DNA of 34,897 bases from an uncultured Candidatus Saccharibacteria bacterium. GTDB lineage: Bacteria > Patescibacteriota > Minisyncoccia > UBA6257 > Colwellbacteraceae. The first letter of the stretch is position 1. Every line of letters starts with the position of its first letter. The DNA lies in contig CAYGDC010000001.1 in the NCBI GenBank assembly GCA_964348605.1, forward strand, positions 6,926-41,822, written 5' to 3'. Under the pieces are notes generated by a model that was given only the letters and a program-made list of their open reading frames with translations, was not told where the DNA came from and ran no database searches. Below, one piece after another: positions 1 to 15,115 of this stretch. The position numbers and the translations under genes were made by a program.

Positions 1-330
1 TAGCTCCCATGCTTCTCATGGCTCTCATGGCTCTCATAGCTCTCATAGCTCTCATAGCTCTCATAGCTCTCATAGCTCCCATAGCTCTCATAGCTCCCAT
101 GCTTCTCATGGCTCTCATGGCTCTCATAGCTCTCATAGCTCTCATAGCTCTCATAGCTCTCATAGCTCCCATAGCTCTCATAGCTCCCATGCTTCTCATG
201 GCTCTCATGGCTCTCATAGCTCTCATAGCTCTCATGGCTCTCATGGCTCTCATAGCTCCCACGGCTCCCATGGCTCTCATAGCTCCCACGGCTCCCATGG
301 CTCCCATGCCTCTCATAGCTCTCATGGCTC
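1..330. repeat. Tandem repeat with a 9-bp unit (consensus GCTCTCATA) arranged in a 90-bp higher-order unit. Copies start at 1, 91 and 181; the first two are identical and the third diverges after ~232. The array runs off the left window edge.
   Basis: Direct reading shows the same 90-nt string at 1-90 and 91-180. Unit variants are GCTCTCATG, GCTCCCATA, GCTCCCATG, GCTCCCACG, CTTCTCATG and CCTCTCATA. By eye the array is clearly more GC-rich than the following 14 kb. Confidence 0.95.
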
Positions 331-338
331 TTGTATAG
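9..338 (+). CDS. Candidate repeat-encoded hydrophobic low-complexity peptide, (A-L-I/M)n with Pro/Thr variants. The frame stays open to nt 3, so the real 5' end may lie outside the window. Coding status and strand are unresolved.
   Basis: The ORF is in the track, stops with TAG at 336-338, and lies on the same strand 47 nt upstream of the first rSAM gene. Two minus-strand frames are also open across the array (see findings), and Leu is encoded by CTC, which is rare elsewhere in the island. Confidence 0.3.
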   Translation: MLLMALMALIALIALIALIALIAPIALIAPMLLMALMALIALIALIALIALIAPIALIAPMLLMALMALIALIALMALMALIAPTAPMALIAPTAPMAPMPLIALMALV

Positions 339-385
339 TTTGTTGTGTTATCACATTTTGATATATTGTATTTACAATCAAATCC

Positions 386-2170
386 GTGTTTTTACGATAC
401 ATAGCGAATAAAATCTATTTAGAAGCTACAGACTCTATTAAAGAGGAATTTTTGCATCCAGAAATATTTTCAATTAAAAGACACATAAATCTTAGAGAGG
501 AGCACGCCTCAGTGCCGCTAGTTTTATTACTAACAAATAAATGTAATGCAATATGTACTTATTGTTATGTCAACGCAAATAAAACAAAAAAAATAATGAG
601 TTTTAAGTTAGCTAAAAAAGTCATTGATGCTGCTTTAATTAAAAATTCAAAACTAGATATATATTTCTTTGGTGGAGGAGAACCGACTATAGCGTTTGCT
701 TTAATGAAAAAAATTCAAGTATATACTAGTTCTTTCAAAAACAAACAAATAAATTTATTTTTAATCTCTAATGGTTTTTTTAATAAATCTGTAGCTAAAT
801 GGATAGCCAGTAATATAAAACATATTTCAATTTCTTGTGATGGTCCTCCATATATTCAAAATAAAAATAGGCCACTTATAGGGAAGCAAGACAGCAGCTC
901 TATTCTAGAAGAAAATCTTAATTTTTTATTACAAAAGGGAGCATCGGTGGTCCTCAGAGTAACTATCACTATGAACTCTTCTAAAAAACAAAAAGAAATT
1001 ATAGAATATGCTTTCCGATTAGGAATTAAAAAACTTTTGTTTGCACCTTTTAGAACAACTAATAAAAGCAGAAAAAACAAAGTTAAAGCAGTTAATTATT
1101 TCAAATTTGCCCAAGATTTTTTAAAAGCTAATGAGCTAGCTGATATTTTTGGATCCAAAATTATTAGCGACTTTTTTCCCATAGAGCCCAAAGATTCAAT
1201 GTGCGGCTTTGAGTCTCCTAATATAGCTGTTTCTTATTCTGGTCATGTAACTACTTGTTGGGAATCAAGCATTAGTTATACCGATAAACGCGATGAGTTT
1301 GTTTATGGCCGAATAGGGGATAATGGTGAAATTCGAAAAAACCCTCGATCTTGGGATAAAATTACTAAAAGAACACCAGATAATATAGATGAATGCCGCT
1401 CCTGTTTTTTAAAACGGAGTTGTGCTGGCGGTTGCGCCGCTACACATTTTCAAGCAACTGGAGACATAATGAAATTAGACAAAAATCGATGTGATGCCTC
1501 AAGATGGCTTGTCAAACAATATATTCTTTGTCTTGCTAGGCAACAAAACATAAATATTAAACCGTTTTTCGAACAGAATCAAAACAAAACATATTTTATT
1601 ACTTATTTTAACCGCTTTAGGGTGGGGAGAAAAAATATTATGGAGTTTAATCCGTTTATTGAAATAAGTAAGTCTAATTTAGATGATTTATCTCTCCTTA
1701 CAAAATTAATAGTTAAATATCGAGACAAAAAAGGATATAGCCCTATTTTATTTTTTTTAAATTTTATTTTTTCGCCAGATAATTTAAACATTAACACAGG
1801 ACATAAAATTATAACTTTTCTAAAAACTTTATCAGATCATAAAATACATTTTATTATAACAGCCCCATTGCCGAGCTGTATTTTTTCTACAGAAGACCTG
1901 TCTTTCATAATTACAAATTACAAATCTCCCGAAACTCTTATTACTTCTTTATCCTTTTTTCGCATAATAAATAATTTTTATTATTTTAATAACATTAATT
2001 CTAAAATTAAATATTCTGCCCTTGTAAAAAGGGAGATATTATTTAAAAGAGCTTTAGAAATTAAGCCTTTTCAAATTTATAACAAATGTTGTAAATGTCC
2101 ACTATTTTTACAAAAAAGTTGCGGAGGAGTATTTAATAAAATAAATATAAATATTGAAAAAAAATATTAA
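386..2170 (+). CDS. Radical SAM/SPASM-domain enzyme (594 aa) with a ~170-aa Cys-containing C-terminal extension
   Basis: CNAICTYC (CxxxCxxC, aa 53-60, nt 542-565), FFGGGEPT, and a canonical SPASM motif CRSCFLKRSCAGGC (aa 337-350). The C-terminal extension carries PLPSC and CCKCx7CGG. There is no ATG before the rSAM motif. GTG at 386 is the track start; TTG at 452, preceded by AAGAGGA, is an alternative. Confidence 0.85.
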   Translation: MFLRYIANKIYLEATDSIKEEFLHPEIFSIKRHINLREEHASVPLVLLLTNKCNAICTYCYVNANKTKKIMSFKLAKKVIDAALIKNSKLDIYFFGGGEPTIAFALMKKIQVYTSSFKNKQINLFLISNGFFNKSVAKWIASNIKHISISCDGPPYIQNKNRPLIGKQDSSSILEENLNFLLQKGASVVLRVTITMNSSKKQKEIIEYAFRLGIKKLLFAPFRTTNKSRKNKVKAVNYFKFAQDFLKANELADIFGSKIISDFFPIEPKDSMCGFESPNIAVSYSGHVTTCWESSISYTDKRDEFVYGRIGDNGEIRKNPRSWDKITKRTPDNIDECRSCFLKRSCAGGCAATHFQATGDIMKLDKNRCDASRWLVKQYILCLARQQNINIKPFFEQNQNKTYFITYFNRFRVGRKNIMEFNPFIEISKSNLDDLSLLTKLIVKYRDKKGYSPILFFLNFIFSPDNLNINTGHKIITFLKTLSDHKIHFIITAPLPSCIFSTEDLSFIITNYKSPETLITSLSFFRIINNFYYFNNINSKIKYSALVKREILFKRALEIKPFQIYNKCCKCPLFLQKSCGGVFNKININIEKKY

Positions 2171-2672
2171 ATCTATCATATTATTGTTTGTTGGGTTAAT
2201 AATCTTATTATTAATGCACTACTTAGGCATTGCCGACATTCCTTTTGTACAAAATAGTTTATATATAAGTTTTATTTGGTCTATAGTCGCGGTCATATTT
2301 TTAACTATAATTCACCTATTTTATTTTTATATTTTAATTCCCAATAATAAATTTTCGATATATTGGGAGAATATAAGTTGGCGCAAAATATTTAGATTTT
2401 TTTATACTTCATTTATAGAAGAGGTCTGGTTTAGGGGGGTCTTCCTTTTATTATTATTTAATATAATTGAATATCCAGCAATTTTAATATCTGCTATTTT
2501 TTTTACTATCATGCACCATAGCCGAGAGGCGCAAATATTTGCTTTTTTAATGGGGATATTATTCGGATTTATAGTTATTTATACCAATAATATCATAGGA
2601 CCATTTTTAGGCCACTGGATTTTTAATATTATAAATTATAATTTTATTGGCCCAGTTAAAATAAAAAAATAA
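2154..2672 (+). CDS. CPBP-family (CAAX/Abi-type) intramembrane glutamic protease
   Basis: A polytopic hydrophobic protein with the three CPBP motifs: EEVWFR (aa 89-94), FFTIMHH (FxxxH, aa 116-122) and HWIFN (HxxxN, aa 154-158). The TTG start overlaps the upstream rSAM stop by 17 nt, so the exact start is uncertain. Confidence 0.75.
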   Translation: MKKNIKSIILLFVGLIILLLMHYLGIADIPFVQNSLYISFIWSIVAVIFLTIIHLFYFYILIPNNKFSIYWENISWRKIFRFFYTSFIEEVWFRGVFLLLLFNIIEYPAILISAIFFTIMHHSREAQIFAFLMGILFGFIVIYTNNIIGPFLGHWIFNIINYNFIGPVKIKK

Positions 2673-2685
2673 AAATAAGTATATT

Positions 2686-3654
2686 ATGACTCTAATTACA
2701 AAGAGATCTCCATATATCGCGCTTACTTATGATTGTAATTTAAGCTGTGATTATTGCTCTTCAGAGGGACTTTATGAAAGAAATAACAAAAATATTTCAG
2801 TTAAGGATTTTGTATTAGTTATTGATTGGCTTGTAAAACAAGGAGTGAAATCTATCGCTCTTATTGGCGGAGAGCCAACTTTGCATCCAGAATTCAACGA
2901 ATTAATGAGCTATGCCGGTAAAAAAATTGCTATTTTTTTGCCCACGAATGGTCTTTTCGAAGAAAGAAAAAAAATCCCTTTTTCAAAACAAGAAATTAGA
3001 GGAGCCACGCTACATCTTAATGCAAAAACAATGTATTTAGAGAATGATTGGAAATTATTTAATCAAAATGCTATTTATCTATCTAATTTAAATATACTTA
3101 CTGATATTAGTTTTGTAATTAAAGAAGTGCCCTTGCCAAGAGAAGAGATTTTATCCTTTTGCCAGAAATATAAAAGAACACTTCGCCTTGCCTTTGCTCG
3201 ACCAAGCGCTTTTGGAAAAAACAATTTTTTAACTTTTAATCAAATAAAAAAAATTTTTTCATCAATTGAGAAAGATATTATGTTTTTTAGAGAAAAAGGC
3301 ATCAAGACCGCTATGTTTAGTAATTTGCCAATCTGCATAATAGAAAACTATCGCCCTCTTTTTTCGTACAATTCCAGCGATTTATCCCCTAATTTAGGGA
3401 CTTGTTGCTCAACAATAGATGGTAAATTTGATGCGTCTATTGTTATTCACCCCAATTTAACAACAAATATCTGTATGGCATTGCCCCTGTCAAACCCTAA
3501 AAGGATTATTGAATATAAGTCTTTAGATGAAGCTAAAAAAATTTTTGCAAAAGATTTTGCTAAAATTCAAAGAAAGCCTCTTTTTAAAAAGTGTGAAATA
3601 TGTGAGTTATATAATAATAGCTGTCATGGAGGATGCTTAGTCCGCAAACTATAG
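2686..3654 (+). CDS. Radical SAM enzyme with a SPASM/twitch-like C-terminal Cys cluster (322 aa)
   Basis: CNLSCDYC (nt 2734-2757), LIGGEPTL, and C-terminal GTCC...C...CEICx6CHGGC. Confidence 0.85.
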   Translation: MTLITKRSPYIALTYDCNLSCDYCSSEGLYERNNKNISVKDFVLVIDWLVKQGVKSIALIGGEPTLHPEFNELMSYAGKKIAIFLPTNGLFEERKKIPFSKQEIRGATLHLNAKTMYLENDWKLFNQNAIYLSNLNILTDISFVIKEVPLPREEILSFCQKYKRTLRLAFARPSAFGKNNFLTFNQIKKIFSSIEKDIMFFREKGIKTAMFSNLPICIIENYRPLFSYNSSDLSPNLGTCCSTIDGKFDASIVIHPNLTTNICMALPLSNPKRIIEYKSLDEAKKIFAKDFAKIQRKPLFKKCEICELYNNSCHGGCLVRKL

Positions 3655-3730
3655 AAAGTATATATTGCGATACTAAGTTATATAATATACACTGGAATGG
3701 TTTGAAAATGATTTATAAATCATTACAATA

Positions 3731-4645
3731 ATGACGCGACTAGATTTAAAGGTGGGATTTCAGTGCAATAATTATTGTATTTTTTGTGTGCAGGGAGACA
3801 AAAGGTACAAGCACCCAGATAGAAATCTAAAAGAAATTAAGCTAATCTTACAGCGCGGCAGCAAAGAATTAAGGCGTAATGTAGTTTTTACTGGAGGAGA
3901 AGCGACTTTGAGAAAAAATATTCTATTAAAAGCAGTGGCCTACGCTAAAAAAATAGGATATCAAACCATTCAAATCCAAAGCAATGGAAGAATGTTCGCT
4001 TATATTGATTATTGTAAAGAGCTTATCATGGCTGGAGCGAATGAGTTTAGTCCAGCGTTACACGGCTCTACTCCTGATATTCATGACGAACTAACTCAAG
4101 TCCCTGGTAGTTTTAAACAAACTACGGAAGGCATCAAAAACCTTAAACTACTCAATCAATATGTGTTAACTAATTCAGTTATTACTAAAAAAAATTATAA
4201 AGACTTACCTAAATTATCAGAGTTATTAGTTCAATTAAGGGTTAATCAATTTCAACTAGCATTTATTCATATTAATCAAATTATTGCTAGTGATCCTTAT
4301 AAAATAAATGATATAGTGCCAAAAGTAAGTAAAGTAATGCCCTATGTTAAGAAAGCGCTTGATGTTGGGGTTATAGCAGGTGTTTCTTGCATGACTGAGG
4401 CAATTCCCTATTGCCTAATGTATGGTTATGAGGACTATATTGCTGAAAAAATTATACCAGAAGCGCATGTTTTTGATGCAGAGATAGATATTATAGACTA
4501 TACTCAATACAGACGAAATCAAGGGAAAATTAAATCTCCTAATTGCCTAAGGTGTTATTACTATCAAGTCTGCGAAGGTCCGTGGAAAGAGTATCCAGAG
4601 ATTTTTGGATGGTCAGAGTTTAAATCAGTAATTAATAAAAAATGA
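3731..4645 (+). CDS. Radical SAM enzyme, paralog family A, member A1 (304 aa)
   Basis: CNNYCIFC (nt 3764-3787), FTGGEATLR, SNGRMFAY, HDELTQVPGSFKQTTEGIKN, and C-terminal IPYC...CLRCx5CEG. It closely resembles the internal rSAM domain of the 1151-aa fusion. Confidence 0.85.
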   Translation: MTRLDLKVGFQCNNYCIFCVQGDKRYKHPDRNLKEIKLILQRGSKELRRNVVFTGGEATLRKNILLKAVAYAKKIGYQTIQIQSNGRMFAYIDYCKELIMAGANEFSPALHGSTPDIHDELTQVPGSFKQTTEGIKNLKLLNQYVLTNSVITKKNYKDLPKLSELLVQLRVNQFQLAFIHINQIIASDPYKINDIVPKVSKVMPYVKKALDVGVIAGVSCMTEAIPYCLMYGYEDYIAEKIIPEAHVFDAEIDIIDYTQYRRNQGKIKSPNCLRCYYYQVCEGPWKEYPEIFGWSEFKSVINKK

Positions 4646-5637
4646 TCAATTTAAAAAATAAAAAAGCTGTTTTTAAAAAAATTAACACAATAACTAAATT
4701 ATTTAATTTATCTGCTTATGAGTTATTAGCTGTTATTTACAATTTAAAACCAGCAATGGCTGAAGCTAATACCGGTGTTTATGACTCATCGTCTTCTGAG
4801 AAGCTAGATCAACTTGGAAGAATATGTTCAGAGCTAGGCCTTAAAATGGCCTTCTCACAAAAAAAATATATCATTAATAGCCCACGAGGAATTTTTGAAG
4901 AAGTAGAACTGAATAGCCCAGAAGACGGTAATTTAGTTATTGGGATATCTAAAGATATACAAACATCATTAAGTGCTGTGGCTCATTATCGATGGAAGAT
5001 GAAAGATAGTATTTATGGCAGGAGCTTTGGCAAGCTTATGGGCTATCCTGACTGTTGCTTAGATTTTGGAGACTATTTATGCAAGGGTCACGGTGATAGC
5101 AATTCTAATAATTTAGGATTCCGTAATCCAGCCGTGGAGTCACTTAAAAGATCAAAAAAAGTAGCTTGGCAATTAAATATCTTTGTCGCATCAGCTTTGC
5201 CCCACTATCCTTGTCATTTAAATTGCAACAAAAGCAAAGATTATGTTAATGGTCTTTTCGAAATTCTAAAAATAGCTGCGCCAGAAATATACCTAAGGCA
5301 CACAATGATGCTTAAAAATGATATTAGTCTTTATTGGAGTTGCGCTGATAAGGTTGTTTTTCATGGTCATTTTATAAAAAAAGGAAATAGTTTTGCAGAT
5401 ACTGAAGCCCAATATAATAGCGCAGACTTCCATATTAATTCTTCTACATTTTATCAAGCTAACAGCGATAGTTATTTAAATCAGCTAGAAGTTATCAAGC
5501 AAGCAATAAAAGAGGGGGATAAAATCATAACTACGCCAAAATATTTTGAAATTCGGCATAGTAAAACTGTTTTATTAAAAATCAATAAAAGCCATGAGCT
5601 TATTCCAGTTTTACTTAAAAGTGATAATGAAAAATAG
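4642..5637 (+). CDS. Cys-motif protein of unknown function, family B, member B1 (331 aa)
   Basis: Motifs GYPDCC (aa 134-139) and HYPCHLNC (aa 188-195) are shared with the ORF at 7473-8432. Its ATGA start overlaps the A1 stop. I cannot place it in a named family from memory. Confidence 0.7.
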   Translation: MINLKNKKAVFKKINTITKLFNLSAYELLAVIYNLKPAMAEANTGVYDSSSSEKLDQLGRICSELGLKMAFSQKKYIINSPRGIFEEVELNSPEDGNLVIGISKDIQTSLSAVAHYRWKMKDSIYGRSFGKLMGYPDCCLDFGDYLCKGHGDSNSNNLGFRNPAVESLKRSKKVAWQLNIFVASALPHYPCHLNCNKSKDYVNGLFEILKIAAPEIYLRHTMMLKNDISLYWSCADKVVFHGHFIKKGNSFADTEAQYNSADFHINSSTFYQANSDSYLNQLEVIKQAIKEGDKIITTPKYFEIRHSKTVLLKINKSHELIPVLLKSDNEK

Positions 5638-6574
5638 CAATCAAAAACAACTCATAGCAGTAACAGGATTCACATGTAACAATAATTGTGTTTTATGTTC
5701 ACTAAGGCCTCAGGCCCTTATTCATAATAATAAAAGTACGCAGGAAATCGAAGTTATGTTGGCATCTGCTGCCAAAGAAGGCTTATCAGCAGTAGAGTTC
5801 ACAGGTGGTGAGCCTACTTTAAGAAAAGACTTACTTCATCTTATTTGTTACGCAAAAAATATAGGGTTTCGAAATATTGCGATTGGGACTAATGGTCGGC
5901 TTTTAAGTTATAAAGTTTTTTTAAACAATTTGATTAGCGCCGGATTAAATAAAATTACCCTGACCCTTTTTTCCCATAAGGAACTTATTCACGATTCAAT
6001 AACGCGAACTCCTGGATCATTTAAGCAAACAGTAACCGCTATCAATAATATTATTCAAGAGCCCAGTATTCAATTAAGCGTCAATACAACAGTTTGTCAA
6101 TTGAATTATGCATTACTTAATGAAACTGGGATATTTTTATATAAAGCTGGAGTTAAGCATTGGGGGGTCTTAGACCTTATTCCTTTTGGCAATGCTGATA
6201 AACTTTATATAAGTTTGGTAGTTAAGCTAGATGAGTTATATATTGCGCTTAATAAACTTGAAAATATAGTAGGCTATTTTCAATCAGTATCATTTTTTGA
6301 CTTCTCTCACTGTTTGTTTAATAAAAAAATAAGGAGTCATCTAAATATCAGATTTTTTGATGCGCAAGAAAGAGTGCATACTTTTAAACAAATAGGGTAT
6401 CGTCCTGCAAGATTTAGCGTGAAAAAAAAAGACATTTATAGCGATGTTCATAAGCGTCATATTGCAATATGCGAAAATTGCCATTATAACAAAAATTGTG
6501 CAGGTTTTTGGCAAAACTATCTTCATTTATATGGCGAATCATTTAAAGCTCAGGTAATAAAAAAAGCTCTCTAA
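5627..6574 (+). CDS. Radical SAM enzyme, paralog family A, member A2
   Basis: CNNNCVLC (nt 5675-5698), FTGGEPTLRKD, TNGRLLSY, HDSITRTPGSFKQT, and C-terminal CENCx5CAG. The track start is 5594. I prefer the ATG at 5627 (MKNSNQ...), which overlaps the stop of B1. Confidence 0.8.
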   Translation: MKNSNQKQLIAVTGFTCNNNCVLCSLRPQALIHNNKSTQEIEVMLASAAKEGLSAVEFTGGEPTLRKDLLHLICYAKNIGFRNIAIGTNGRLLSYKVFLNNLISAGLNKITLTLFSHKELIHDSITRTPGSFKQTVTAINNIIQEPSIQLSVNTTVCQLNYALLNETGIFLYKAGVKHWGVLDLIPFGNADKLYISLVVKLDELYIALNKLENIVGYFQSVSFFDFSHCLFNKKIRSHLNIRFFDAQERVHTFKQIGYRPARFSVKKKDIYSDVHKRHIAICENCHYNKNCAGFWQNYLHLYGESFKAQVIKKAL

Positions 6575-6578
6575 AAAT

Positions 6579-7433
6579 ATGACAACTAAAACAATTAGTC
6601 CTTATATATATATAGGATATCATTGTAATAATAACTGTATTTTTTGCTCTGAGGCTGATGGATATCTCGAGGCATTAAAAATAAAAACCACAGATCAAGT
6701 TAAAAAAGAAATTATTGCAGCTAGGCAGCAATACAATTTTATTAATTTTATGGGCAGAGAGCCCACTCTTAGAAATGATTTTATAGACATTATTAAATTT
6801 GCTCAACAACAACATTTTGAACAGATCGGTTTTACTACCAATGGCAGAATGTTGGCATACCCAGAATTTACTCAAAGGATTTTACGCACCGGCATCAATC
6901 AAGTTGCTATTTCTTTAATTGGGAATAATCACATTATTCACGATAAACAAACTCAGGTTAAGGGTAGTTTTATGCAAACAATTCATGGTATTAAAAATGT
7001 GATTAAATTTAAAGACCCTGATACCAGCTTATTAATTAACATACCACTAAATAAATTAAATTATCTTTCGCTCAAGCCTTCTCTTGATTTATTAGTAAAA
7101 TTAGGAGTTAGAGAGATTAATATTCTTTTTGTTTTTCCTTTAAGTGAGCGCTCGCAGAATAAAAATATTATAATGTCGATGAGTAAGCTAGGAGCGCATG
7201 TCTTTAAGGTCATTAAGCCTTATTTGCAAAATCCAAATTTAAAGATTCTTTTAGTAGAATTTTTGCCATGCTCTTTGCCTAAAGAAGCTAGGCAACTTTT
7301 TTTTCCTTGTTTGGAAAAAAATCCAGAGAAAATAAGAATTCCGTTATGCTCTCAATGTTCTTATAAAGGTAAGTGCGACGGAGTTTTAAAAAACTATATT
7401 GATTTATATGGAGATAGAGAATTTGTTCTTTAA
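6579..7433 (+). CDS. Radical SAM enzyme, paralog family A, member A3 (284 aa)
   Basis: CNNNCIFC (nt 6624-6647), MGREPTLRND, TNGRMLAY, HDKQTQVKGSFMQTIHGIKN, and C-terminal CSQCx5CDG. Confidence 0.85.
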   Translation: MTTKTISPYIYIGYHCNNNCIFCSEADGYLEALKIKTTDQVKKEIIAARQQYNFINFMGREPTLRNDFIDIIKFAQQQHFEQIGFTTNGRMLAYPEFTQRILRTGINQVAISLIGNNHIIHDKQTQVKGSFMQTIHGIKNVIKFKDPDTSLLINIPLNKLNYLSLKPSLDLLVKLGVREINILFVFPLSERSQNKNIIMSMSKLGAHVFKVIKPYLQNPNLKILLVEFLPCSLPKEARQLFFPCLEKNPEKIRIPLCSQCSYKGKCDGVLKNYIDLYGDREFVL

Positions 7434-7472
7434 GTGAGAAAGGTTTATAATTTTTATTAAATAATATTAATA

Positions 7473-8432
7473 ATGAAAATTAATAAAAATCTACATAAAG
7501 AAATAATTAATTATAATCTAGATTATATAGAGCTTCTTGCTCTTTTAAATAATATTAAGCCCTTAGTTTTTTGTACTATATGCCAAGCACAAAAAAATAA
7601 CTTAATAAAGCTAATGAAAAAACTTAATCTTTATTACAGATTTGTAACTGATCCGATAATTGAAGAAAAATCCGAAATGTCAAGTAGCGAAGGAGAATTT
7701 TTAATTATTTCTAAAGAGATCGAGAAAGTAAATAATTTTATTAATGTATATTTTGGCGATAATCATGAAAAAAAATTTACAAAAGTTGGAGAGCTTTTAG
7801 GCTACCCTAAGTGTTGTGCTTTTAAATATATAAATTATATTTTTAATGATGGGTCACCACAAAGATTAAGAAATTATTATTATCAGGCAACAAAAAAATC
7901 TCAAAAATTTCACTCTCTAATTAACCCCCTTTTTTCTTTTTATGGCAGGATAAGCTCAAATGAGTTTGTAAAACTTAGATCTTTTTCTGAAAAAAATAAG
8001 TCTCTCAACATACAAGAATTAATGTTGATTTCTCATGCCCCCTGTTCTTTTAATTGCATTCAGAGCATTGAATATGCAAAAAAAATCTATTCTGTTTTAA
8101 AAAGGGAAAATAAAATTAAGGCCAATAAAATTATTAAGATTCTATCAAATCCAGTTCTTTTTTTTGATACGTTTGAGTTTATTGTTTTTAATGGAAAAGC
8201 AAATAAAAAAGAAATTATTTATAACAATATTTGTCCTCCATTTTCGCTAGTTTCTGATAAAATAATAAAAAAAATTAAACAAGGAAATAGATTACTTGTT
8301 AATGATGTTAATATTCAAATATATATTGATAAAAAAAAGATATATACAATAAAAAAAGAAAGTGTGTCCGATGGGTTTATAATACCATTTTCAAAAAATT
8401 TAATAAAAGATTATGGCCTTACTCATGAATAA
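7473..8432 (+). CDS. Cys-motif protein of unknown function, family B, member B2 (319 aa)
   Basis: GYPKCC (aa 110-115) and HAPCSFNC (aa 188-195). The N-terminal ELLAxxxNxKP segment also resembles B1. Confidence 0.7.
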   Translation: MKINKNLHKEIINYNLDYIELLALLNNIKPLVFCTICQAQKNNLIKLMKKLNLYYRFVTDPIIEEKSEMSSSEGEFLIISKEIEKVNNFINVYFGDNHEKKFTKVGELLGYPKCCAFKYINYIFNDGSPQRLRNYYYQATKKSQKFHSLINPLFSFYGRISSNEFVKLRSFSEKNKSLNIQELMLISHAPCSFNCIQSIEYAKKIYSVLKRENKIKANKIIKILSNPVLFFDTFEFIVFNGKANKKEIIYNNICPPFSLVSDKIIKKIKQGNRLLVNDVNIQIYIDKKKIYTIKKESVSDGFIIPFSKNLIKDYGLTHE

Positions 8433-11400
8433 AAAATATTTTTATCTAAATATGCAAGATAAAGATTTAGAAGAAAGGATTTCGATACATAAAAAATTTT
8501 TAGACTTACATCTTGGCAATCGATTTATGGTCGATATACCAATATGTGTAAATCCACCTAAAGATTTTAATGCCGAATCTATTAAGGATTTTTGGCAAAA
8601 TTTTGTCTCTGCATTTCCCCATCGCACTGACAGTAAAATATTAAATTTTTATATTCATATCCCTTATTGTCTAAATAAGTGCCATTATTGTTTTTATGGA
8701 TCTGAGGCATTAAATAATAAGAAAGACTTAGATCGATATATTGCTGTTTTAATAAAATATTTTCAATATTTTGAGAAGACTTTTAATAAAATAACTTTTG
8801 CAAATTTATATATAGGTGGTGGGACACCTAATATATTAGATGAAAAACAATTAAAGACTTTATTAGCTGAGTTATTTAAGCGTTTTAAATTTGACAAGGA
8901 TGGAGAGAAGACATTTGAAGGCGATCCCAGGTGTTCTTCTTTAAAAAAGCTTAAGTTATTAAAAAAATACGGCTTTAATCGCATTAGCTTTGGCGTGCAA
9001 TCTTTTGATAAAAAAGTATTAAAATATAATAATAGAGATGAACAAATTGATGGCAAGGTAGTAAAACGCGCTGTTGATGATGTTAAAAAAGCCGGCATCT
9101 CCCACATTAATTTAGATATGATAGTGGGTCTTTATGGCGAAGAAGAAAATTCCCTTATTACAAGTTTCCAACAAGCCATTCAGTTAAAGCCCTATTCTAT
9201 ATCTGTATATCCCATGCAAGCAACTGATAAATATCTAAAAATGTTTTTTGATTCTAATAAAACAAAATTTGATGAATATCGAGCAAAAATTATTAATTCG
9301 ACAATAAGCAAGATATTAGAAATTGCTGAAGAGAATAATTATAAGTGCCCCACTTATTCAGAATATATTTTTCCAATGAGTAATGCCTCTTCTTTTAGTT
9401 TAATTAATCAAGCTATACGCCCGCTAAGCTCAACATACAATGTAGATAGCCCTGATCAAAATGTTTCTTGTTTTGGATTGGGGATTCATAGTATTTCTAA
9501 AATTAATGGCAGAGAATTTTCTTATCAAATGACAGAGCCGCTAACGACACATCCAGTGAACTATATTTATAAGGGAATTGCCAATGATAAAAAGCATCAA
9601 ATAGCTGAATATCTTGTGAGGGGATTTGCTTCCAAAAAATTTATTTCTAGAGCAGATATTAGAAAAGCTATCGGCGCTGATGTTATTGATTATTTCCAAG
9701 ATGTTCTTACAAAGCTAAAGGCAATTAAAATAATTAGCATTAGGGGAGATAAAGTATATTTTGCCCCTAAAACAGAGGATGAAAGAAAAAAAAATATATT
9801 ATTTTTTTATGATATTGATGAAATTAAAGCGCGCATGCCAAAAGAAGAAATAGAGCCTATTCAGCATGATAATAAAATAAAAAAAACCGTTATTATCGCT
9901 GGTTATGCTTGTAATAATAATTGCATTTTTTGTATACATGGAGACAAGCGTAGTCAGATTGTAGATAAAACTAATCTGCAAATTAAAAAAGAAATAAATG
10001 AGGCACGCAATCGAGGCAGTACTTATTTAGAAATTATTGGCGGAGAAGCGTCAACAAGGCTGGATATACTAGATTTAATAAAGTTTGCCAAAAAAATAGG
10101 ATTTAGCACCATTATGATGGCTACTAATGGTCGAATGTATTCGTATGAAGAGTTTACCAGAAAGGCTCTCCAGGCTGGCCTAAATAGCCTAGTTTTTTCT
10201 ATTCATGGCCACAATAGCGAGCTTCACGATGCCCTTACTCAGGCTCCTGGTAGTTTCCAGCAACTCAAACAGGGGCTTCAAAATGCACAAAAAATAGCAA
10301 AAGATTTAAATCTAGATATAAGCTTGGGAGCTAATGTTTGCATTGTAAAACAAAATTATAAATATTTGCCCAAGATTGGAAATTATATTAAAAAACTAGG
10401 GATTAATAACGCTGAATTTATTTTTATTGATCCCAATAATGGCGCAGGACTTAAGTCTTTTAATAAACTGGTTCCTAAAATTTCTGATGCTGCGCCATAT
10501 ATTCATAAGTGTTTAGAAATCGGTAAAAAAAATAAAATACCTCATTGGCACATTAGATATGTTCCTCTTTGTTATTTTCAAAATTATCTTGATCAAATAA
10601 GTGAATTACAGGAAATAAAATCATTTCACACTGAGCACATTGCGCCTGATTTTTATAATCCAAATGCCTCGGAGGGAAGACAAAATATTGGGCGAATAAA
10701 AACAGAAAAATGCCAAAAGTGTCAATTATTTAATAAATGCGAAGGCGTCTGGAAAGAATATTTTAGGCACTATGGTGATGCAGAACTAATGCCTATTATT
10801 GATAATAATTCTAATCACCAAAATGCCCCTATTGTTCTTCTTAGAATCCTTCCTGCCACATTTGATTTATATATAAACAATATAGATCTTCTTTGCCAAA
10901 GAATGAAGAATGATTTTAACATGCCTGTAAATCTACTATTTATAGTTTCTATGGAAGATATACTGGGAGAATTTAGAGACAAAAAGAAAAAGATGGCAGT
11001 AAAAAAAATAAAAAAAATAGTTACTAAATTAGTAAAGAAAAATTTAGATTTTAGCATTAGTCCGCTTCCTCCGTGTTTATTTAATGTTCCTTGCCCAATA
11101 ATCATCAAAAAACGGATTTTGAAAAACAATCAAACCTATTCTTTGCCCCCAGCGTTCATAACTGATCCAGGCATAAAACATTCTATTGATAGCATTGAAA
11201 ACATGGACATCCAGCCCCAATGTTTATCATGCCAATTTAAATTGAAGAATAAATGTAGGGGGATATATATAAAGATAGGCGTACCATTAATTGATCAAAA
11301 AACTCAAGAATGGTTAAAAAACAAAATAGAATCATCAAAAAATATTACTTTACTTGATTGTGGTAGTGGCGCTAATCCGCCATTTTTAAAAACCTATAAA

Positions 11401-11868
11401 GAAATTGCCTTGGGAGGCGGCCTTATACATCTTTTAGAACCCGATACAGAAGAGGTGGTGGGACTAATGCCAGCAGTCTCTAGCTACCCTAGTATTATTA
11501 TTAATAATAATACTATTGAAGATGCTGATCTCCAGAGAAATTTTTTTGATATTGTAATATTAACTGGCAGCTATTCTCATATTCACAATTTACACAAAGC
11601 ATTGCTGAATATAGAGAGCGCTTTAAAACAAGGAGGTCTTTTATTAATAAAAGACGAAATGGACACAACGCAATCTGAGGGAAATAAAATTTTTGATAAA
11701 AGCCAAGCGTCAGCTTACGGATTTCATTACAGGAATCATAGCTTAAAGCGAGTTACTGCTGAGCTAGAAAAATATAACTTTAAAGTTATTGAAGGAGTAG
11801 AAGGAGAAGCAATGAAAAATAAACATCAGTTTTGGGCTATTAAAGCAGAAAAAAATAGCTATATATAG
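8413..11868 (+). CDS. Four-domain fusion protein (1151 aa): HemN/HemZ-like radical SAM + family-A radical SAM (A4) + Cys-containing X domain + class I SAM-dependent methyltransferase
   Basis: HemN-like: YIHIPYCLNKCHYC (nt 8668-8691), YIGGGTPN, NRISFGVQSF, NLDMIVGLYGE. A4: CNNNCIFC (nt 9910-9933), IIGGEASTR, TNGRMYSY, HDALTQAPGSFQQL, CQKCx5CEG. X domain (aa ~805-955): SPLPPC and CLSCx7CRG. Methyltransferase: LLDCGSGANP (aa ~979-988) and a later GGLLLIKD. An alternative ATG at 8425 overlaps the B2 stop. Confidence 0.85.
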   Translation: MALLMNKKYFYLNMQDKDLEERISIHKKFLDLHLGNRFMVDIPICVNPPKDFNAESIKDFWQNFVSAFPHRTDSKILNFYIHIPYCLNKCHYCFYGSEALNNKKDLDRYIAVLIKYFQYFEKTFNKITFANLYIGGGTPNILDEKQLKTLLAELFKRFKFDKDGEKTFEGDPRCSSLKKLKLLKKYGFNRISFGVQSFDKKVLKYNNRDEQIDGKVVKRAVDDVKKAGISHINLDMIVGLYGEEENSLITSFQQAIQLKPYSISVYPMQATDKYLKMFFDSNKTKFDEYRAKIINSTISKILEIAEENNYKCPTYSEYIFPMSNASSFSLINQAIRPLSSTYNVDSPDQNVSCFGLGIHSISKINGREFSYQMTEPLTTHPVNYIYKGIANDKKHQIAEYLVRGFASKKFISRADIRKAIGADVIDYFQDVLTKLKAIKIISIRGDKVYFAPKTEDERKKNILFFYDIDEIKARMPKEEIEPIQHDNKIKKTVIIAGYACNNNCIFCIHGDKRSQIVDKTNLQIKKEINEARNRGSTYLEIIGGEASTRLDILDLIKFAKKIGFSTIMMATNGRMYSYEEFTRKALQAGLNSLVFSIHGHNSELHDALTQAPGSFQQLKQGLQNAQKIAKDLNLDISLGANVCIVKQNYKYLPKIGNYIKKLGINNAEFIFIDPNNGAGLKSFNKLVPKISDAAPYIHKCLEIGKKNKIPHWHIRYVPLCYFQNYLDQISELQEIKSFHTEHIAPDFYNPNASEGRQNIGRIKTEKCQKCQLFNKCEGVWKEYFRHYGDAELMPIIDNNSNHQNAPIVLLRILPATFDLYINNIDLLCQRMKNDFNMPVNLLFIVSMEDILGEFRDKKKKMAVKKIKKIVTKLVKKNLDFSISPLPPCLFNVPCPIIIKKRILKNNQTYSLPPAFITDPGIKHSIDSIENMDIQPQCLSCQFKLKNKCRGIYIKIGVPLIDQKTQEWLKNKIESSKNITLLDCGSGANPPFLKTYKEIALGGGLIHLLEPDTEEVVGLMPAVSSYPSIIINNNTIEDADLQRNFFDIVILTGSYSHIHNLHKALLNIESALKQGGLLLIKDEMDTTQSEGNKIFDKSQASAYGFHYRNHSLKRVTAELEKYNFKVIEGVEGEAMKNKHQFWAIKAEKNSYI

Positions 11869-11925
11869 CAATATATGTTACTATTAATATAATAAAGGTC
11901 GAAAATAAAATAATTAATATAAAAA

Positions 11926-12480
11926 ATGAATAAAAAAGTTTTGCTTGGAGTAGTTATATTATTTGTTGTGTTAGGCATTTTATTTATTATGATGTTAATG
12001 CCTAATTTAATCGCAGAAAGGGAGGGGGTGGGAGCGAATAGACAAGAAGCGCGACCAACATCTCTTCGTTCTTTAGTAACCCCTAATGGGCGGATTATTT
12101 ATTTGCGCGACGACATGTTCTTAAACGCGATCCACGGATTTTTTAAAGAGCAAATTAGTCCATCAGAGTTCATAATGATAGCTGACTTACAACAAATGTT
12201 TCAGGACGCCGACGGACTACATACAGAAATAAGAGTTACTATACATCCAGATGCTCCAGTTGTTGCCGTTAAAGGAATTCGAGCAGATAGAACTATGGAC
12301 GAAACTCCTATATCTATAGATGATTTACGATGGGGGAATCTAATTCAACTTGAATTAATGACCGGAGAGCTCAATACTCAAGTTTTTGAAAAAGATGCAT
12401 ATACCCCAAGAAGAATTATGCGCCTTGATTTTATTCCCATGGGCCTTACTCCTACTACTGAGCCTGCGTCTATCCCTTAA
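11926..12480 (+). CDS. Hypothetical membrane-anchored or secreted protein (184 aa)
   Basis: It has an N-terminal hydrophobic helix (VLLGVVILFVVLGILFIMMLM) followed by a soluble domain with no motif I recognise. By eye it is noticeably more GC-rich than its neighbours. Confidence 0.6.
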   Translation: MNKKVLLGVVILFVVLGILFIMMLMPNLIAEREGVGANRQEARPTSLRSLVTPNGRIIYLRDDMFLNAIHGFFKEQISPSEFIMIADLQQMFQDADGLHTEIRVTIHPDAPVVAVKGIRADRTMDETPISIDDLRWGNLIQLELMTGELNTQVFEKDAYTPRRIMRLDFIPMGLTPTTEPASIP

Positions 12481-12513
12481 AACACAGCAAAGGGGATTAA
12501 ACATAATAGTAAA

Positions 12514-12551
12514 ATACACATGGGGTGTTTATAAGAACATCCCATGTGTAT
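12514..12551 (+). terminator. Strong stem-loop downstream of the 184-aa ORF (putative terminator)
   Basis: ATACACATGGGGTGTT (12514-12529) pairs with GAACATCCCATGTGTAT (12535-12551), giving a ~16-bp stem with one G-A mismatch and a 5-nt loop. The tail is AT-rich, not a clean T-tract. Confidence 0.55.
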
Positions 12552-12585
12552 TATAAAATAACAAGATTTAAGCACATTCAATAAT

Positions 12586-12614
12586 TTGATTATCGCAAAT
12601 TTATAGATTATTAT
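12586..12614 (+). promoter_or_regulatory. Sigma70-like promoter in front of the 73-aa ORF
   Basis: TTGATT (12586-12591), a 17-nt spacer, then TATTAT (12609-12614), ending 16 nt before the ATG at 12631. The geometry matches the rpsB promoter here. In AT-rich DNA chance matches are common. Confidence 0.4.
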
Positions 12615-12630
12615 TTAAAAAAATAAAAAA

Positions 12631-12852
12631 ATGCAAAAAACTTCTTTAGTTGATAAAAAACAATATGCTGTTATTTATCGTAGTATAGAGCACTTTGAGG
12701 TTCTTGGCTTTGTTACGGCTGATTCTATAGAGGATGCAAAAGACAAGGCTAAAAAAGAATTATTAGTAGAAGCTAAACACTACGTGGTAACAGAAGCAGA
12801 AATTGCTGAATTAAAAGATTTAAATAAAATATCTTTTGATATTTCCACTTAA
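12631..12852 (+). CDS. Small hypothetical protein (73 aa), acidic/Lys-rich with no Cys
   Basis: The ORF is in the track. It sits 5 nt upstream of rSAM A5 and has its own promoter-like element. No recognisable motif. Confidence 0.5.
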   Translation: MQKTSLVDKKQYAVIYRSIEHFEVLGFVTADSIEDAKDKAKKELLVEAKHYVVTEAEIAELKDLNKISFDIST

Positions 12853-12857
12853 ATAAA

Positions 12858-13805
12858 ATGGCAGATATTTGCGTTTGGAATCGATGCAATAATGGCTGTC
12901 TTATGTGTTCTAATCCACGCGAATTTAATAAATCAGTTCACAGTGCGACATATTCACTAGATGCCATTATAAACAGAGTTAAGAAAAATTATGACAACTT
13001 ACAAAAGAATCACCAAGTTATAGACTTAACTGGTGGTGAGCCAACTATTCATCAACATTTTTTTGAAATACTCGCCCTGCTAAAAAAACAACACCCAGAA
13101 AATAAAATAGCACTCAATACTAATGGTAGGATGTTTGCTTATTATGAGTTTACTAAAAAACATTTGCCCTATATTAATTTTATTAAAATAGCAGTACACG
13201 GCTTTAATCCACAATCACATGATATTATCACTGGAATTAAAGGAAGTTTTTATCAAACTGTTAAGGGAATTAAAAACATTTTAACGGTCAGAAAAAACAT
13301 TAAAAACGGTGCTTTTATCGAAGTTGAGATAAGAATCATTCTAACAAAATTAAATTATCAAAATTTAGAAGAAATACTTAGTTTTTTACATCAAAATTTT
13401 TCAGAAGTTAATAGAATTGTATTAATTTTTCCAGAATTTGAGGGAATTTGCCAGGAGAATTTTTCTCTAATTGGCATTACATATCAAGACTGTTCATTAT
13501 TTATTAAAACAGCTATTCAGAATTGGGCCCCAAATTTTAAAGATATACGGCTTTATCACTTTCCTTTATGCGTTCTACCATTTAAGTTGTGGCCATATAC
13601 TTGGAGAACACTAAGGGGCGACGAAGTTATTTTTTTAGAAAGATGTCAGGAATGTATTTATAAAAAATATTGTCTTGGCGTACACATAGACTATCCTAAA
13701 GTCATTGGAGACAGAGAGTTTCAGCCAATTATATCTTCTGTAGGAGAAATTATAGTAAATAAAGGTGATCAATTTATTTACCACCCAATTATTGCAGTAA
13801 AATAA
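12858..13805 (+). CDS. Radical SAM enzyme, paralog family A, member A5 (315 aa)
   Basis: CNNGCLMC (nt 12885-12908), LTGGEPTIH, TNGRMFAY, HDIITGIKGSFYQTVKGIKN, FPLC, and CQECx5CLG. Confidence 0.85.
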   Translation: MADICVWNRCNNGCLMCSNPREFNKSVHSATYSLDAIINRVKKNYDNLQKNHQVIDLTGGEPTIHQHFFEILALLKKQHPENKIALNTNGRMFAYYEFTKKHLPYINFIKIAVHGFNPQSHDIITGIKGSFYQTVKGIKNILTVRKNIKNGAFIEVEIRIILTKLNYQNLEEILSFLHQNFSEVNRIVLIFPEFEGICQENFSLIGITYQDCSLFIKTAIQNWAPNFKDIRLYHFPLCVLPFKLWPYTWRTLRGDEVIFLERCQECIYKKYCLGVHIDYPKVIGDREFQPIISSVGEIIVNKGDQFIYHPIIAVK

Positions 13806-13806
13806 G

Positions 13807-14970
13807 ATGGCAATATTGCAAATAATTAATTTTATTGACTTATTTTTTTTATTACCACTTTTTATTATTGGGATAATATCTTCATATACAGATATAAAAT
13901 ATAATAAAATATTTAACAGTCTTATTATTCTTGGCTTACTTTATGGCCTCTGGATAATTATTGCTTTATTGTTACAAAATATTTTTTTACTAGGTGAGGC
14001 AGAAAACTTTATTTATATAGGCAAAGTTTTTTTAAACTCCTTTTTAGCTTTATTAGTGGGCTATTTTCTTTGGTATCAAAAATATTGGTCAGCCGGAGAC
14101 GCTAAGCTATTTACTGTTTATGCCCTATTACTACCTTTAAAATTTTACGATAAAAGTTATTTTGACTACTTCCCTTCTTTTAATTTAATAATCAATTTAT
14201 TTTTCCCAGTCATCATTGTTTTAAGCTTTTATTCTCTTAAAGATTTTTTTTATTCTTTGTTCGAGCGACTTATTAAAAAAAATATATTTTTAAAGCAGGT
14301 GCCTATTAAAGAGCGTTATTTTAATGCTATAAAAGAGCTTAAAAAAATTGGCACTTTATTAATAAACTTTATTTTTTTTATTGTTATTATCCAAATAATA
14401 TTACTTAGTTTTAGAATAGTTATTGGCCAAACAGCAGGCTTGCATCCTTTTTTACTTTATCTAATTATCGTTTTTCTAATGCAAAAAATTAATAAGTGGA
14501 AAAATAAATTTAGATGGCTCACTCCTCTTATTTATAGCGTATCATTTATATATATCTTTTATTTAATTATTCAACTTGATTTTTCTGCTATTTTGGGGCT
14601 AGCGAGAATGGCCTTAATATTTTTAATATTTATTAATTTGGCTCGTCATTTTTTAGATCATTATATTGACAGAAAAGAGATAGGATCTCTTCCATTAAAA
14701 GATTTACGAAAAGGAGTATTAATTCATCAAGAAGATTTAAGCAAGCTCATAAGCTCCTTAAGCACAAAAGAAAAGGAAGCATTAAATTGGATTGGCGCTG
14801 AAGGCATAAGCGAGGAACAAATCTTGATTATTAAAAATAAATTTAAAACAAGCCTAAATAATGAAATAAGATTTTATAAAACATTTCCTTTCGCGCCCTA
14901 TATGTTATTAGCGACTATAATCTCTATATTAACTCAATCTTCATTTTTAGCTTGGATAGATATTATATAA
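13807..14970 (+). CDS. Polytopic membrane protein resembling an A24-family (prepilin/preflagellin peptidase-type) aspartic protease, with a large C-terminal extension
   Basis: SYTDIKYNKIFN (Asp29) and WSAGDAKLF (GxGD-like, Asp98, nt 14098-14100) sit ~70 aa apart in hydrophobic segments. The C-terminal FPFAPYMLLA resembles the conserved PFxP end of A24 peptidases. The start is 1 nt after the A5 stop. Confidence 0.55.
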   Translation: MAILQIINFIDLFFLLPLFIIGIISSYTDIKYNKIFNSLIILGLLYGLWIIIALLLQNIFLLGEAENFIYIGKVFLNSFLALLVGYFLWYQKYWSAGDAKLFTVYALLLPLKFYDKSYFDYFPSFNLIINLFFPVIIVLSFYSLKDFFYSLFERLIKKNIFLKQVPIKERYFNAIKELKKIGTLLINFIFFIVIIQIILLSFRIVIGQTAGLHPFLLYLIIVFLMQKINKWKNKFRWLTPLIYSVSFIYIFYLIIQLDFSAILGLARMALIFLIFINLARHFLDHYIDRKEIGSLPLKDLRKGVLIHQEDLSKLISSLSTKEKEALNWIGAEGISEEQILIIKNKFKTSLNNEIRFYKTFPFAPYMLLATIISILTQSSFLAWIDII

Positions 14971-15115
14971 AGTGCTGGATAAAAACATTTATTTAAATTA
15001 TTAAAATAAATCTTTTTTATTTTCTAATAGAGCAATAATAAAACCACTATTATTTGCGCTTAAATATAATATAGTATAATCTCACATCATAAATAGGTAG
15101 TTCAAATAATATTTT

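Follow-up and report, generated by a model that had tools for sequence, protein, structure and literature searches.

In a stretch of 34,897 nucleotides from an uncultured Candidatus Saccharibacteria bacterium (contig CAYGDC010000001.1, positions 6,926 to 41,822; the whole stretch is called the window below), five short radical S-adenosylmethionine (SAM) enzymes, A1 to A5, are by their sequences HxsC/HxsC4-like and hence relatives of the radical SAM maturase of the His-Xaa-Ser (HXS) system. Taking all evidence together, the best explanation, which we consider likely, is that A1 to A5 are anciently diverged paralogs of the HxsC family residing in one array and acting on the HxsA repeat protein. 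This array is co-directional and tightly packed; its first genes, starting just upstream of the window, are hxsD, an hxsD-like gene, hxsB and hxsA, and its last is the gene for an A24 aspartic peptidase.

Five HxsC-like enzymes next to a His-Xaa-Ser repeat gene

In the first 17 kb of the window, which as a whole is AT-rich (26-39% G + C), all long open reading frames (ORFs) lie on the plus strand. A1 (3731-4645), A2 (5627-6574, with an alternative ATG at 5594), A3 (6579-7433) and A5 (12858-13805) are separate genes, and A4 (9874-10809) is a domain comprising residues ~488-799 of an ORF of 1151 amino acids (aa) at 8413-11868. All of them were found where a first-pass annotation, made from the sequence alone, had placed them, and the gene order A1-B1-A2-A3-B2-[HemN-A4] was likewise confirmed, with neighbouring genes either overlapping or spaced by 4 nucleotides. 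That A1 to A5 form one paralogous family, with A1 and A4 as the most similar pair, is borne out by BLASTP, in which pairwise identities range from 23 to 35% (E values from 1e-12 to 8e-56), i.e., from 23% for A4-A5 through 30% for A1-A2, 32% for A3-A4 and 34% for A3-A5 to 35% for A1-A4 (8e-56). A MAFFT alignment contains 31 columns that are invariant across the five proteins, including C12, N13, N14, C16, C19, G55, E57, N85-G86-R87 and Y91 in the radical SAM part, H118-D119, T122, G126-S127-F128, Q130 and N155-Y156 in the middle, and a lone C228 followed by C272-x2-C275-x5-C281-x-G283, Y288 and G293 in the C-terminal part. Furthermore, our own hidden Markov model (HMM) of family A scores A1 to A5 at 309-356 bits (matching the fusion protein at aa 489-799), and no other radical SAM protein of the locus scores outside 32-56 bits; those encoded at 386-2170 and 2686-3654 resemble the A proteins over the N-terminal ~90 aa only (E ≥ 2e-4). 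Given the BLASTP E values and the gap between the HMM scores, the likeness of A1 to A5 is much greater than chance would give and goes beyond the generic features shared by all radical SAM enzymes.

With respect to family identity, the best NCBIfam match of A1 to A4 is HxsC4 (NF038332, 116-157 bits: A1 136.5, A2 144.5, A3 116.3 and A4 157.4, the last at aa 488-723 of the fusion protein), followed by HxsC (TIGR03977), and the best match of A5 is HxsC, with an HxsC4 score of 80.8 bits. The HxsC scores are 180.0 bits for A5, which is the paralog nearest to canonical HxsC, 103.4 for A1, 102.3 for A2, 89.4 for A3 and 78.9 for A4. The HxsC4 model could be aligned end to end with an ortholog of A4, and A5 is 43% identical to a protein named HxsC by the Joint Genome Institute. 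Annotated hxsC products of Klebsiella, Nostoc and Leptospira plasmids are 18-28% identical to A1 to A5, with 26-28% identity between A5 and canonical HxsC. Models of unrelated radical SAM families (MoaA, AhbD, NirJ and BlsE) score well under HxsC and HxsC4 for all five proteins. On the curated cut-offs, an identity as MoaA (43-78 bits against cut-offs of 284-325 bits, TIGR02666/TIGR02668), as BlsE (38-65 bits against 400 bits, TIGR04466) and as AhbD or NirJ was rejected, and in PADLOC 2.0 the radical SAM cores gave no more than weak matches to pVip (generic viperin).

The genomic context decides the question. At the very start of the window, a tandem repeat of 9 nucleotides in 36.8 copies (1-331) reads (H-x-S)n in frame 2; it belongs to the 3' part of hxsA (2-361, plus strand, cut by the window edge), which codes for a His-Xaa-Ser repeat protein (x = S, G or A) ending in HGSCIVCCVITF and presumed to be the substrate. 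A public contig that is identical to the window and reaches 3.1 kb further upstream (L004) encodes the full HxsA, a protein of 213 aa with ~41 H-x-S triplets (HxsA4 model NF038313, 71.1 bits, cut-off 55), together with HxsD (TIGR03976, 60.3 bits, cut-off 50), an HxsD-like protein of 71 aa (NF038315, 61.9 bits, cut-off 41) and HxsB (TIGR03978, 481 bits, cut-off 370). The HxsA, HxsB and HxsD proteins that are expected in the same locus as an HxsC are thus all present above their cut-offs, and with the adjoining hxsA repeats, HxsD and HxsB the A genes are HxsC-type components of a bona fide HXS system. The first-pass annotation had overlooked both the HxsC-like nature of the family and the presumed substrate gene at 2-361. 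Public gene calls place a minus-strand ORF of 171 aa (L004 2931-3446) where HxsA is encoded (L004 2841-3482), and ORF lists show a spurious plus-strand frame of 109 aa ('MALIALIAL') over the repeat, so that the true HxsA frame is easily missed.

Exactly four Cys residues outside the radical SAM motif are conserved in A1 to A5, and the fourth Cys of the SPASM-like motif is missing, as had been noted in the first-pass annotation; no Cys stands at +3 or +4 after C281, nor anywhere behind it, in contrast to the seven or eight Cys, CxxCx5Cx3C among them, required of a SPASM domain. In a joint alignment the four extra Cys are aligned in 30 of 30 sequences, canonical HxsC of Klebsiella, Nostoc and Leptospira among them, and this four-Cys signature is therefore a trait of the whole HxsC family. 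Comparison by hhalign of a profile from 91 A-family sequences with one from nine HxsB sequences placed the CxxCx5C of the A family over the SPASM motif of HxsB, CxxCx5CxxC, again with the fourth Cys missing (98-99% probability). In the AlphaFold2 model of A1 (predicted local distance difference test, pLDDT, 93; predicted template modelling score 0.91), C228 comes after the last core strand and is followed by a beta-hairpin (245-249/252-254) and a helix (257-265); a further, short helix contains C272 and C275, and C281 belongs to the loop behind it. This order of Cys, beta-hairpin, helix and CxxCx5C is the same as in SPASM and twitch domains, the latter being truncated SPASM domains that bind one auxiliary cluster (PMC9012708). 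On account of the four conserved Cys, their superposition on the HxsB SPASM domain and the modelled topology, as well as the presence of the same Cys in canonical HxsC, it is reasonable to infer that the A enzymes plausibly hold a single twitch-like auxiliary Fe-S cluster.

Several observations weigh against the assignment to the HxsC family and its supposed action on HxsA. All five proteins stay under the curated cut-offs for HxsC (267.9 bits, TIGR03977) and for HxsC4 (500 bits; NF038332 is an NCBIfam model of the 'rare' exception type), and since their scores amount to about one quarter to one third of the 500-bit cut-off, they should be considered relatives of HxsC4 and not members. An N-terminal extension of ~95-115 aa, present in canonical HxsC (370-394 aa in length), is absent from A1 to A5, with the radical SAM domain starting at aa 96-118 in the Klebsiella and Nostoc proteins as compared to aa ~9 here. 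The Pfam and TIGR SPASM models (PF13186, TIGR04085) do not match the C-terminal fragments of A1 to A5 even at E ≤ 10; neither does the Pfam SPASM model match canonical HxsC. Glycosyltransferase genes occur in some related clusters, the substrate of BlsE, the enzyme with the most similar solved structure, is a sugar nucleotide and not a peptide, and the chemistry of Escherichia coli HxsC is itself unsolved (PMC13128918). The first-pass annotation had reckoned with the family turning out to be a characterised enzyme, and this is half the case: HxsC has been characterised genetically (PMC13128918), but its chemistry has not been solved and A1 to A5 fall short of both HxsC cut-offs.

An alternative hypothesis assumes that the substrate of the A enzymes is not the HxS protein but a small molecule, e.g., a sugar nucleotide, a cofactor or a lipid, as it is for BlsE, MoaA and viperin, their nearest relatives of solved structure. 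According to Foldseek, the solved structures nearest to the A1 model are BlsE (E 5e-11, TM 0.64), SkfB, viperins and SuiB, MoaA is also among the top PDB matches, the sequence-profile match to BlsE (PDB 7VOB) has an E value of 1.7e-20, and a cluster in Nealsonbacteria includes glycosyltransferase, PMT_2 and spermine-synthase-like genes. However, the sequence match to BlsE is confined to the radical SAM core (aa 10-185) and all curated small-molecule families score far under their cut-offs; in most loci examined the A genes lie between hxsA/hxsB/hxsD and the peptidase gene, and HxsA does not mature without canonical HxsC (PMC13128918), in which the four extra Cys are present as well. We therefore regard a small-molecule substrate as improbable and a role of the A enzymes in HxsA maturation as the better reading.

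Age of the paralogs and their putative B partners

The locus was compared with 18 loci fetched through B from a genome collection and 80 fetched through A1 from metagenomes (with at least 572 matches), which were annotated with our own A and B HMMs and by BLAST to the proteins of the window. More than 2,400 relatives of A1 exist in databases, of which the best 120 are ~300 aa long, 58-90% identical and come from Patescibacteria (Nealsonbacteria, Colwellbacteria, Minisyncoccia and others); orthologs of A5 are 40-87% and those of B1 36-56% identical. When the genes of a complete Nealsonbacteria genome and of a Colwellbacteria contig were compared with those of the window, both contained orthologs of A1 (61-62% identity), A4 (57-61%) and A5 (44-46%), and the Colwellbacteria contig also those of A3 (56%) and B1 (46%), the counterparts of A2 being weaker (34-38%). 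As the orthologs of A1, A3, A4 and A5 in other lineages (44-62%) are thus more similar than are the paralogs within the window (23-35%), the paralogs are ancient and, judging by these sequence identities, predate the split of these Patescibacteria lineages. In line with this, a neighbour-joining tree, comprising the ingroup only and rooted on canonical HxsC, recovered the orthogroups A1 to A5 with bootstrap values of 94-100 (A2 94, A3 100, A5 97), each with at least two lineages, while the branching among the orthogroups was not resolved.

The order of the genes had led the first-pass annotation to propose a local duplication of an A-B-A unit, the copies of which would have diverged into A1-B1-A2 and A3-B2-A4. 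The literal gene order of the window fits this proposal, as does the fact that all genes concerned are paralogous, and with the deep nodes of the tree unresolved a very ancient duplication of the module is formally possible. However, the pairs A1+A3 and A2+A4 that a module duplication would be expected to generate are not found in the tree, the nearest paralog of A1 is A4 and those of A3 are A5 and A4, none of which is the positional counterpart, and B1 and B2 have just 23.5% identity (E 8e-4). In addition, A1, A3, A4 and A5 have the closer orthologs elsewhere described above, the order in other genomes is A1-A2-A3-B-A4-A5 or lacks B altogether, and many lineages have the B2 type in the slot between A3 and A4, whereas the position of the B1 type varies. 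The local duplication is thus not supported, and we judge it very improbable in comparison with an ancient divergence of the HxsC-like paralogs.

Across genomes a recurrent plan is evident, which reads HxsD-(HxsD-like)-HxsB-HxsA (30-60 repeats)-[large radical SAM/SPASM protein]-A1-A2-A3-(B)-A4-s73-A5-A24 peptidase, s73 being a small conserved protein. The 14 loci that reach from HxsA/HxsB to the peptidase contain 3-9 A domains each (median 6.5), and every cluster has one hxsA. The HemN-A4-methyltransferase fusion is confined to the window's clade, and elsewhere A4 is a stand-alone gene (305-333 aa, orthologs 57-61% identical). L015 and L020 have the HemN-like domain as a gene of its own. Other fusions recur as well: A-A proteins of ~640 aa (L019, L021, L024, L101, L103-L105), A-A-A proteins of 935-1058 aa (L031, L041-L043, L049, L056, L058, L082), B-A proteins of 641 aa (L061, L081) and an A-B protein of 754 aa (L020). 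As to the suggestion of the first-pass annotation that several paralogs mean either several modification sites or several substrates, the single hxsA per cluster and the A-A-A fusions make several steps or sites on one substrate the likelier of the two, at the expense of several substrates.

The cluster extends to some DPANN archaea, where L027 (Iainarchaeum, 1333-10400) and L029 (an uncultured archaeon, 3639-9500) carry HxsD, HxsC-like genes and one to three B genes, and where the Iainarchaeum locus additionally encodes an HxS-repeat protein whose leader is that of the HxsA proteins of Patescibacteria. In the stretches fetched from Nanohalarchaeota (L028) and Nanoanaerosalina (L030), B is present and no A-family gene was detected. 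A contig of 11 kb that is ~87-89% identical to the cluster (L013, DBNY01000040.1) has been filed as 'Bacillales bacterium UBA660', but it is probably mis-binned or mislabelled, as the ribosomal protein S2 of the window is only 38% identical to that of Bacillus.

It could further be argued that only one or two of the paralogs, e.g., A5, are catalytic and that the others serve as scaffolds or substrate-binding subunits. A3 has GRE in place of GGE, tandem A-A-A fusions could include degenerate modules, and the fusion protein of the window already holds a degenerate copy of the Cys module. Yet all five proteins keep CX3CX2C, NGR, HD..T..GSF.Q and the four extra Cys, which are invariant across the orthogroups, and we give this possibility little credence relative to five active HxsC-like enzymes.

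Turning to the B proteins, B1 (4642-5637, plus strand) is a DUF483-like protein with an invariant GYPxCC...PCxxxC motif and a putative partner of the A-type radical SAM enzymes, and B2 (7473-8432, plus strand; 225 bits with our B-family HMM) is a divergent member of the same family in the conserved slot between A3 and A4, which it also occupies in L031, L032, L041, L043, L049, L058 and L075. With 19.7 (B1) and 16.9 bits (B2), both are under the gathering cut-off of 25 for DUF483 (PF04467), though 31 of 37 B1 orthologs match this model at E ≤ 0.01; B should therefore be considered a relative of DUF483 and not a member. A profile search of 1.84 billion representative proteins yielded 1,282 B-family clusters at E ≤ 1e-3; among 148 representatives, GYPxCC is found in 139 and PCxxxC in 129. 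The AlphaFold model of B1 is confident (pLDDT 92), and Foldseek found nothing under E 0.04 for it in the PDB and BFVD, i.e., no solved or predicted viral counterpart. A search of the literature for DUF483 turned up DUF483x families only.

The first-pass annotation had raised the question of whether A and B always co-occur. Co-occurrence is frequent, with at least one B in nine of the 14 complete clusters, but not obligatory, as complete clusters without B exist (five of the 14; L062, L063, L065 and L082 are examples) and L028 and L030 have B with no A detected. The position of B1-type genes also varies: they lie directly upstream of A4 in L017 and L019-L025, and after A1 in the clade of the window (L004, L008, L013-L016). 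By this distribution, B is a facultative partner of the A-type enzymes. Of the best 148 B-family representatives, 20 have 400 aa or more, and 16 of these 20 are A-B fusions. Together with the B-A, A-A and A-A-A fusions, they provide strong comparative evidence that B proteins would work physically with HxsC-like enzymes and that A modules would act together.

Proposed maturation of HxsA and the remaining genes of the cluster

In the mechanism that we propose, HxsA would be the substrate in the form of a membrane-anchored pre-protein with ~41 His-Xaa-Ser repeats. Each A enzyme would use the [4Fe-4S] cluster of its CX3CX2C motif and SAM to generate a 5'-deoxyadenosyl radical, which would abstract hydrogen from residues of the HxS repeats, and a second Fe-S cluster, held by the four family-wide Cys of the truncated SPASM (twitch-like) C-terminal domain, would assist in oxidation or substrate binding. 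The paralogs, probably assembled into a complex, would all work on this one repeat protein, either one after another or each at its own sites, and the B proteins (DUF483-like, four Cys) would be partner domains, each dedicated to a particular A paralog. One-carbon (C1) chemistry would come from the two other domains of the A4 fusion, the HemN-like and the methyltransferase domain, which fits the '+C/-4H' (+8 Da) modification reported for one repeat of E. coli HxsA, on which HxsB, HxsC and HxsD act (PMC13128918). Finally, the leader of HxsA would be cut off by the A24 peptidase, at export or prior to it. The product may serve as a barrier to phage DNA as in E. coli, or else as a surface structure.

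The leaders of the HxsA proteins are conserved (...FLxSEEGxISKK...LELG, a hydrophobic stretch and AAHxSYFxN), and LELG with the hydrophobic segment could be the cleavage site for the A24 peptidase. The latter, an atypical prepilin-peptidase-like polytopic membrane protein of 387 aa (13807-14970, plus strand; PF01478, 26.3 bits), closes the cluster; with few exceptions among the loci, its gene comes after the last A gene, and D29 and G97-D98 are invariant in 29 sequences. In the clade of the window the HxsA tails are rich in Cys and hydrophobic (CIVCCVITF or CLVCCVFTFFS; 335-361 in the window). A CPBP/Rce1-like intramembrane protease of the CAAX-protease family (2154-2672, plus strand; PF02517, 51 bits) is found only in this clade, and its gene and the Cys-rich tail may point to C-terminal processing.

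The genes between hxsA and A1 include two more radical SAM proteins, both on the plus strand. The first (386-2170; 594 aa) is a radical SAM/SPASM protein that carries a long extension at its C terminus; it is PapB/QhpD/HxsB-like under all cut-offs and matches TIGR04085 at aa 273-369; the second (2686-3654; 322 aa) is a short enzyme with PIC...CEICx5CHGGC and is a distant relative of the A family that has retained the fourth Cys. In the fusion gene, on the same strand, a HemN-like radical SAM domain of the class C type (8413-9870; 121-145 bits with HemN, HemW, HemZ and ChuW models, under the cut-offs) precedes A4. Between A4 and the methyltransferase domain sits the degenerate extra Cys module of the A family (10993-11271; PPC...CLSCx7CRG, aa ~861-953), which matches positions 200-278 of the family HMM with an E value of 9e-7. 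Similar PxC...CxxCx5-7CxG tails also end the 594-aa and 322-aa proteins. The fusion is completed by a class I SAM-dependent methyltransferase domain (11338-11865; PF13489 27.0 and PF08241 23.7 bits at aa 976-1127).

Further downstream, again on the plus strand, a protein of 184 aa with an N-terminal membrane anchor (11926-12480) has no Pfam or NCBIfam match and is kept in the window's clade; in a sister contig it is 78% identical and likewise located between the fusion gene and s73. The s73 protein itself (12631-12852; 73 aa in the window, 63-82 aa in general) is encoded directly upstream of A5 in most clusters and has 24 distinct orthologs; its consensus, Y.V.Y.S.EH.EVLG.V.A.S.EEAK...EAK.Y.V.EAEIAE, matches no family, and an origin as a split-off N-terminal domain of HxsC or as a relative of HxsD was rejected on hhalign probabilities of <1%. 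In a scan of positions 1-15300, counts of promoters and terminators were not above those of shuffled sequences. Outside the cluster, at 18024-20165, the window encodes an SMC homolog of 713 aa as compared to a model of ~1180 positions, with the match displayed for the N-terminal head (residues 1-290) only; it may be a shortened SMC protein with a much-reduced coiled coil.

Going beyond this single locus, one might tentatively suppose, although we consider it rather doubtful at present, that Patescibacteria and some DPANN archaea reserve ~20 kb of their very small genomes for a dedicated hypermodification line. Here, 3-9 HxsC-like modules, some of them fused to B, and C1 chemistry of the HemN and methyltransferase type would turn a His-Xaa-Ser pre-protein of 30-60 repeats into a densely cross-linked or alkylated polymer that is cleaved by the A24 peptidase and displayed outside the cell. 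If so, this would be a new class of surface material built by radical SAM enzymes, and the polymer could possibly serve these episymbionts as a barrier to incoming phage DNA or as a metal- or host-binding fibre.

Comparison with known HXS systems and radical SAM enzymes

The function of the HXS system was first assigned in 2026, when the four genes hxsD-hxsB-hxsC-hxsA were shown to form an antiphage system that blocks the entry of phage DNA in E. coli; 99.7% of HXS systems are reported to be in Pseudomonadota, and auxiliary clusters, Patescibacteria or an expansion of paralogs are not mentioned in that work (PMC13128918). That variant systems are known to curators is evident from the NCBIfam models for HxsA3/A4, HxsC4 and HxsD-like proteins, and our literature search found no paper on an HXS-type or multi-HxsC cluster in Patescibacteria. 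The locus in the window is thus apparently an expanded and hitherto undescribed variant of the known HXS system. In it the HXS core of HxsA, HxsB, HxsD and C-like proteins occurs in a much larger form, with many HxsC paralogs, natural A-A-A and A-B fusions and a presumed substrate that consists almost wholly of repeats. This form lies on the chromosome, is syntenic and common among Patescibacteria, and is also met with in DPANN archaea. Since nature would here have divided the pathway into steps with an enzyme for each, and has produced stable fusions, the chemistry of HxsC could become tractable; moreover, the cluster puts the orphan DUF483-like fold into a functional context and is a candidate for a major investment in cell envelope or defence by organisms with minimal genomes.

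Compared with canonical HxsC of E. coli and Klebsiella, the A enzymes share the radical SAM core and the four extra Cys as well as a locus with HxsD, HxsB and an HxS-repeat protein. However, where the canonical system has a single copy, the window has five and related clusters have 3-9. HxsA has five repeats in the canonical system, ~41 in the window and 30-60 in related clusters, and the PG_binding_1 domain of the Klebsiella protein is missing from the HxsA of the window. The window also adds B, HemN-like, methyltransferase, s73 and A24 peptidase genes to give ~16 genes in all, and while canonical HXS systems reside on plasmids or islands in Pseudomonadota, those in Patescibacteria are chromosomal and syntenic. 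The four genes, five repeats and peptidoglycan-binding HxsA that define the antiphage system are accordingly not found here as such, although D, B, A and C-like parts are present. Also close is the HxsC4/HxsA4/HxsD-like set (NF038332, NF038313, NF038315): HxsC4 is the best-scoring named family for A1 to A4, and HxsA and the 71-aa protein of the cluster pass the HxsA4 and HxsD-like cut-offs, but the A proteins remain far under that of HxsC4.

With the twitch enzymes BtrN, MoaA and SkfB and with BlsE, the A enzymes have in common a short radical SAM protein with an apparently truncated SPASM-like C terminus and enough Cys for one auxiliary cluster. They differ from BtrN and MoaA by their Cys pattern of one upstream Cys plus CxxCx5C, and from all of these enzymes by the lack of any sequence match beyond the core and by their presumed substrate, which is a repeat protein. 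Finally, the maturases of ribosomally synthesised and post-translationally modified peptides that carry a SPASM domain, such as SuiB, PqqE and HxsB, resemble the A family in the CxxCx5C that aligns with the HxsB SPASM domain and, for SuiB, in an alignment over ~330 columns, whereas the A family has only four of their seven or eight SPASM Cys.

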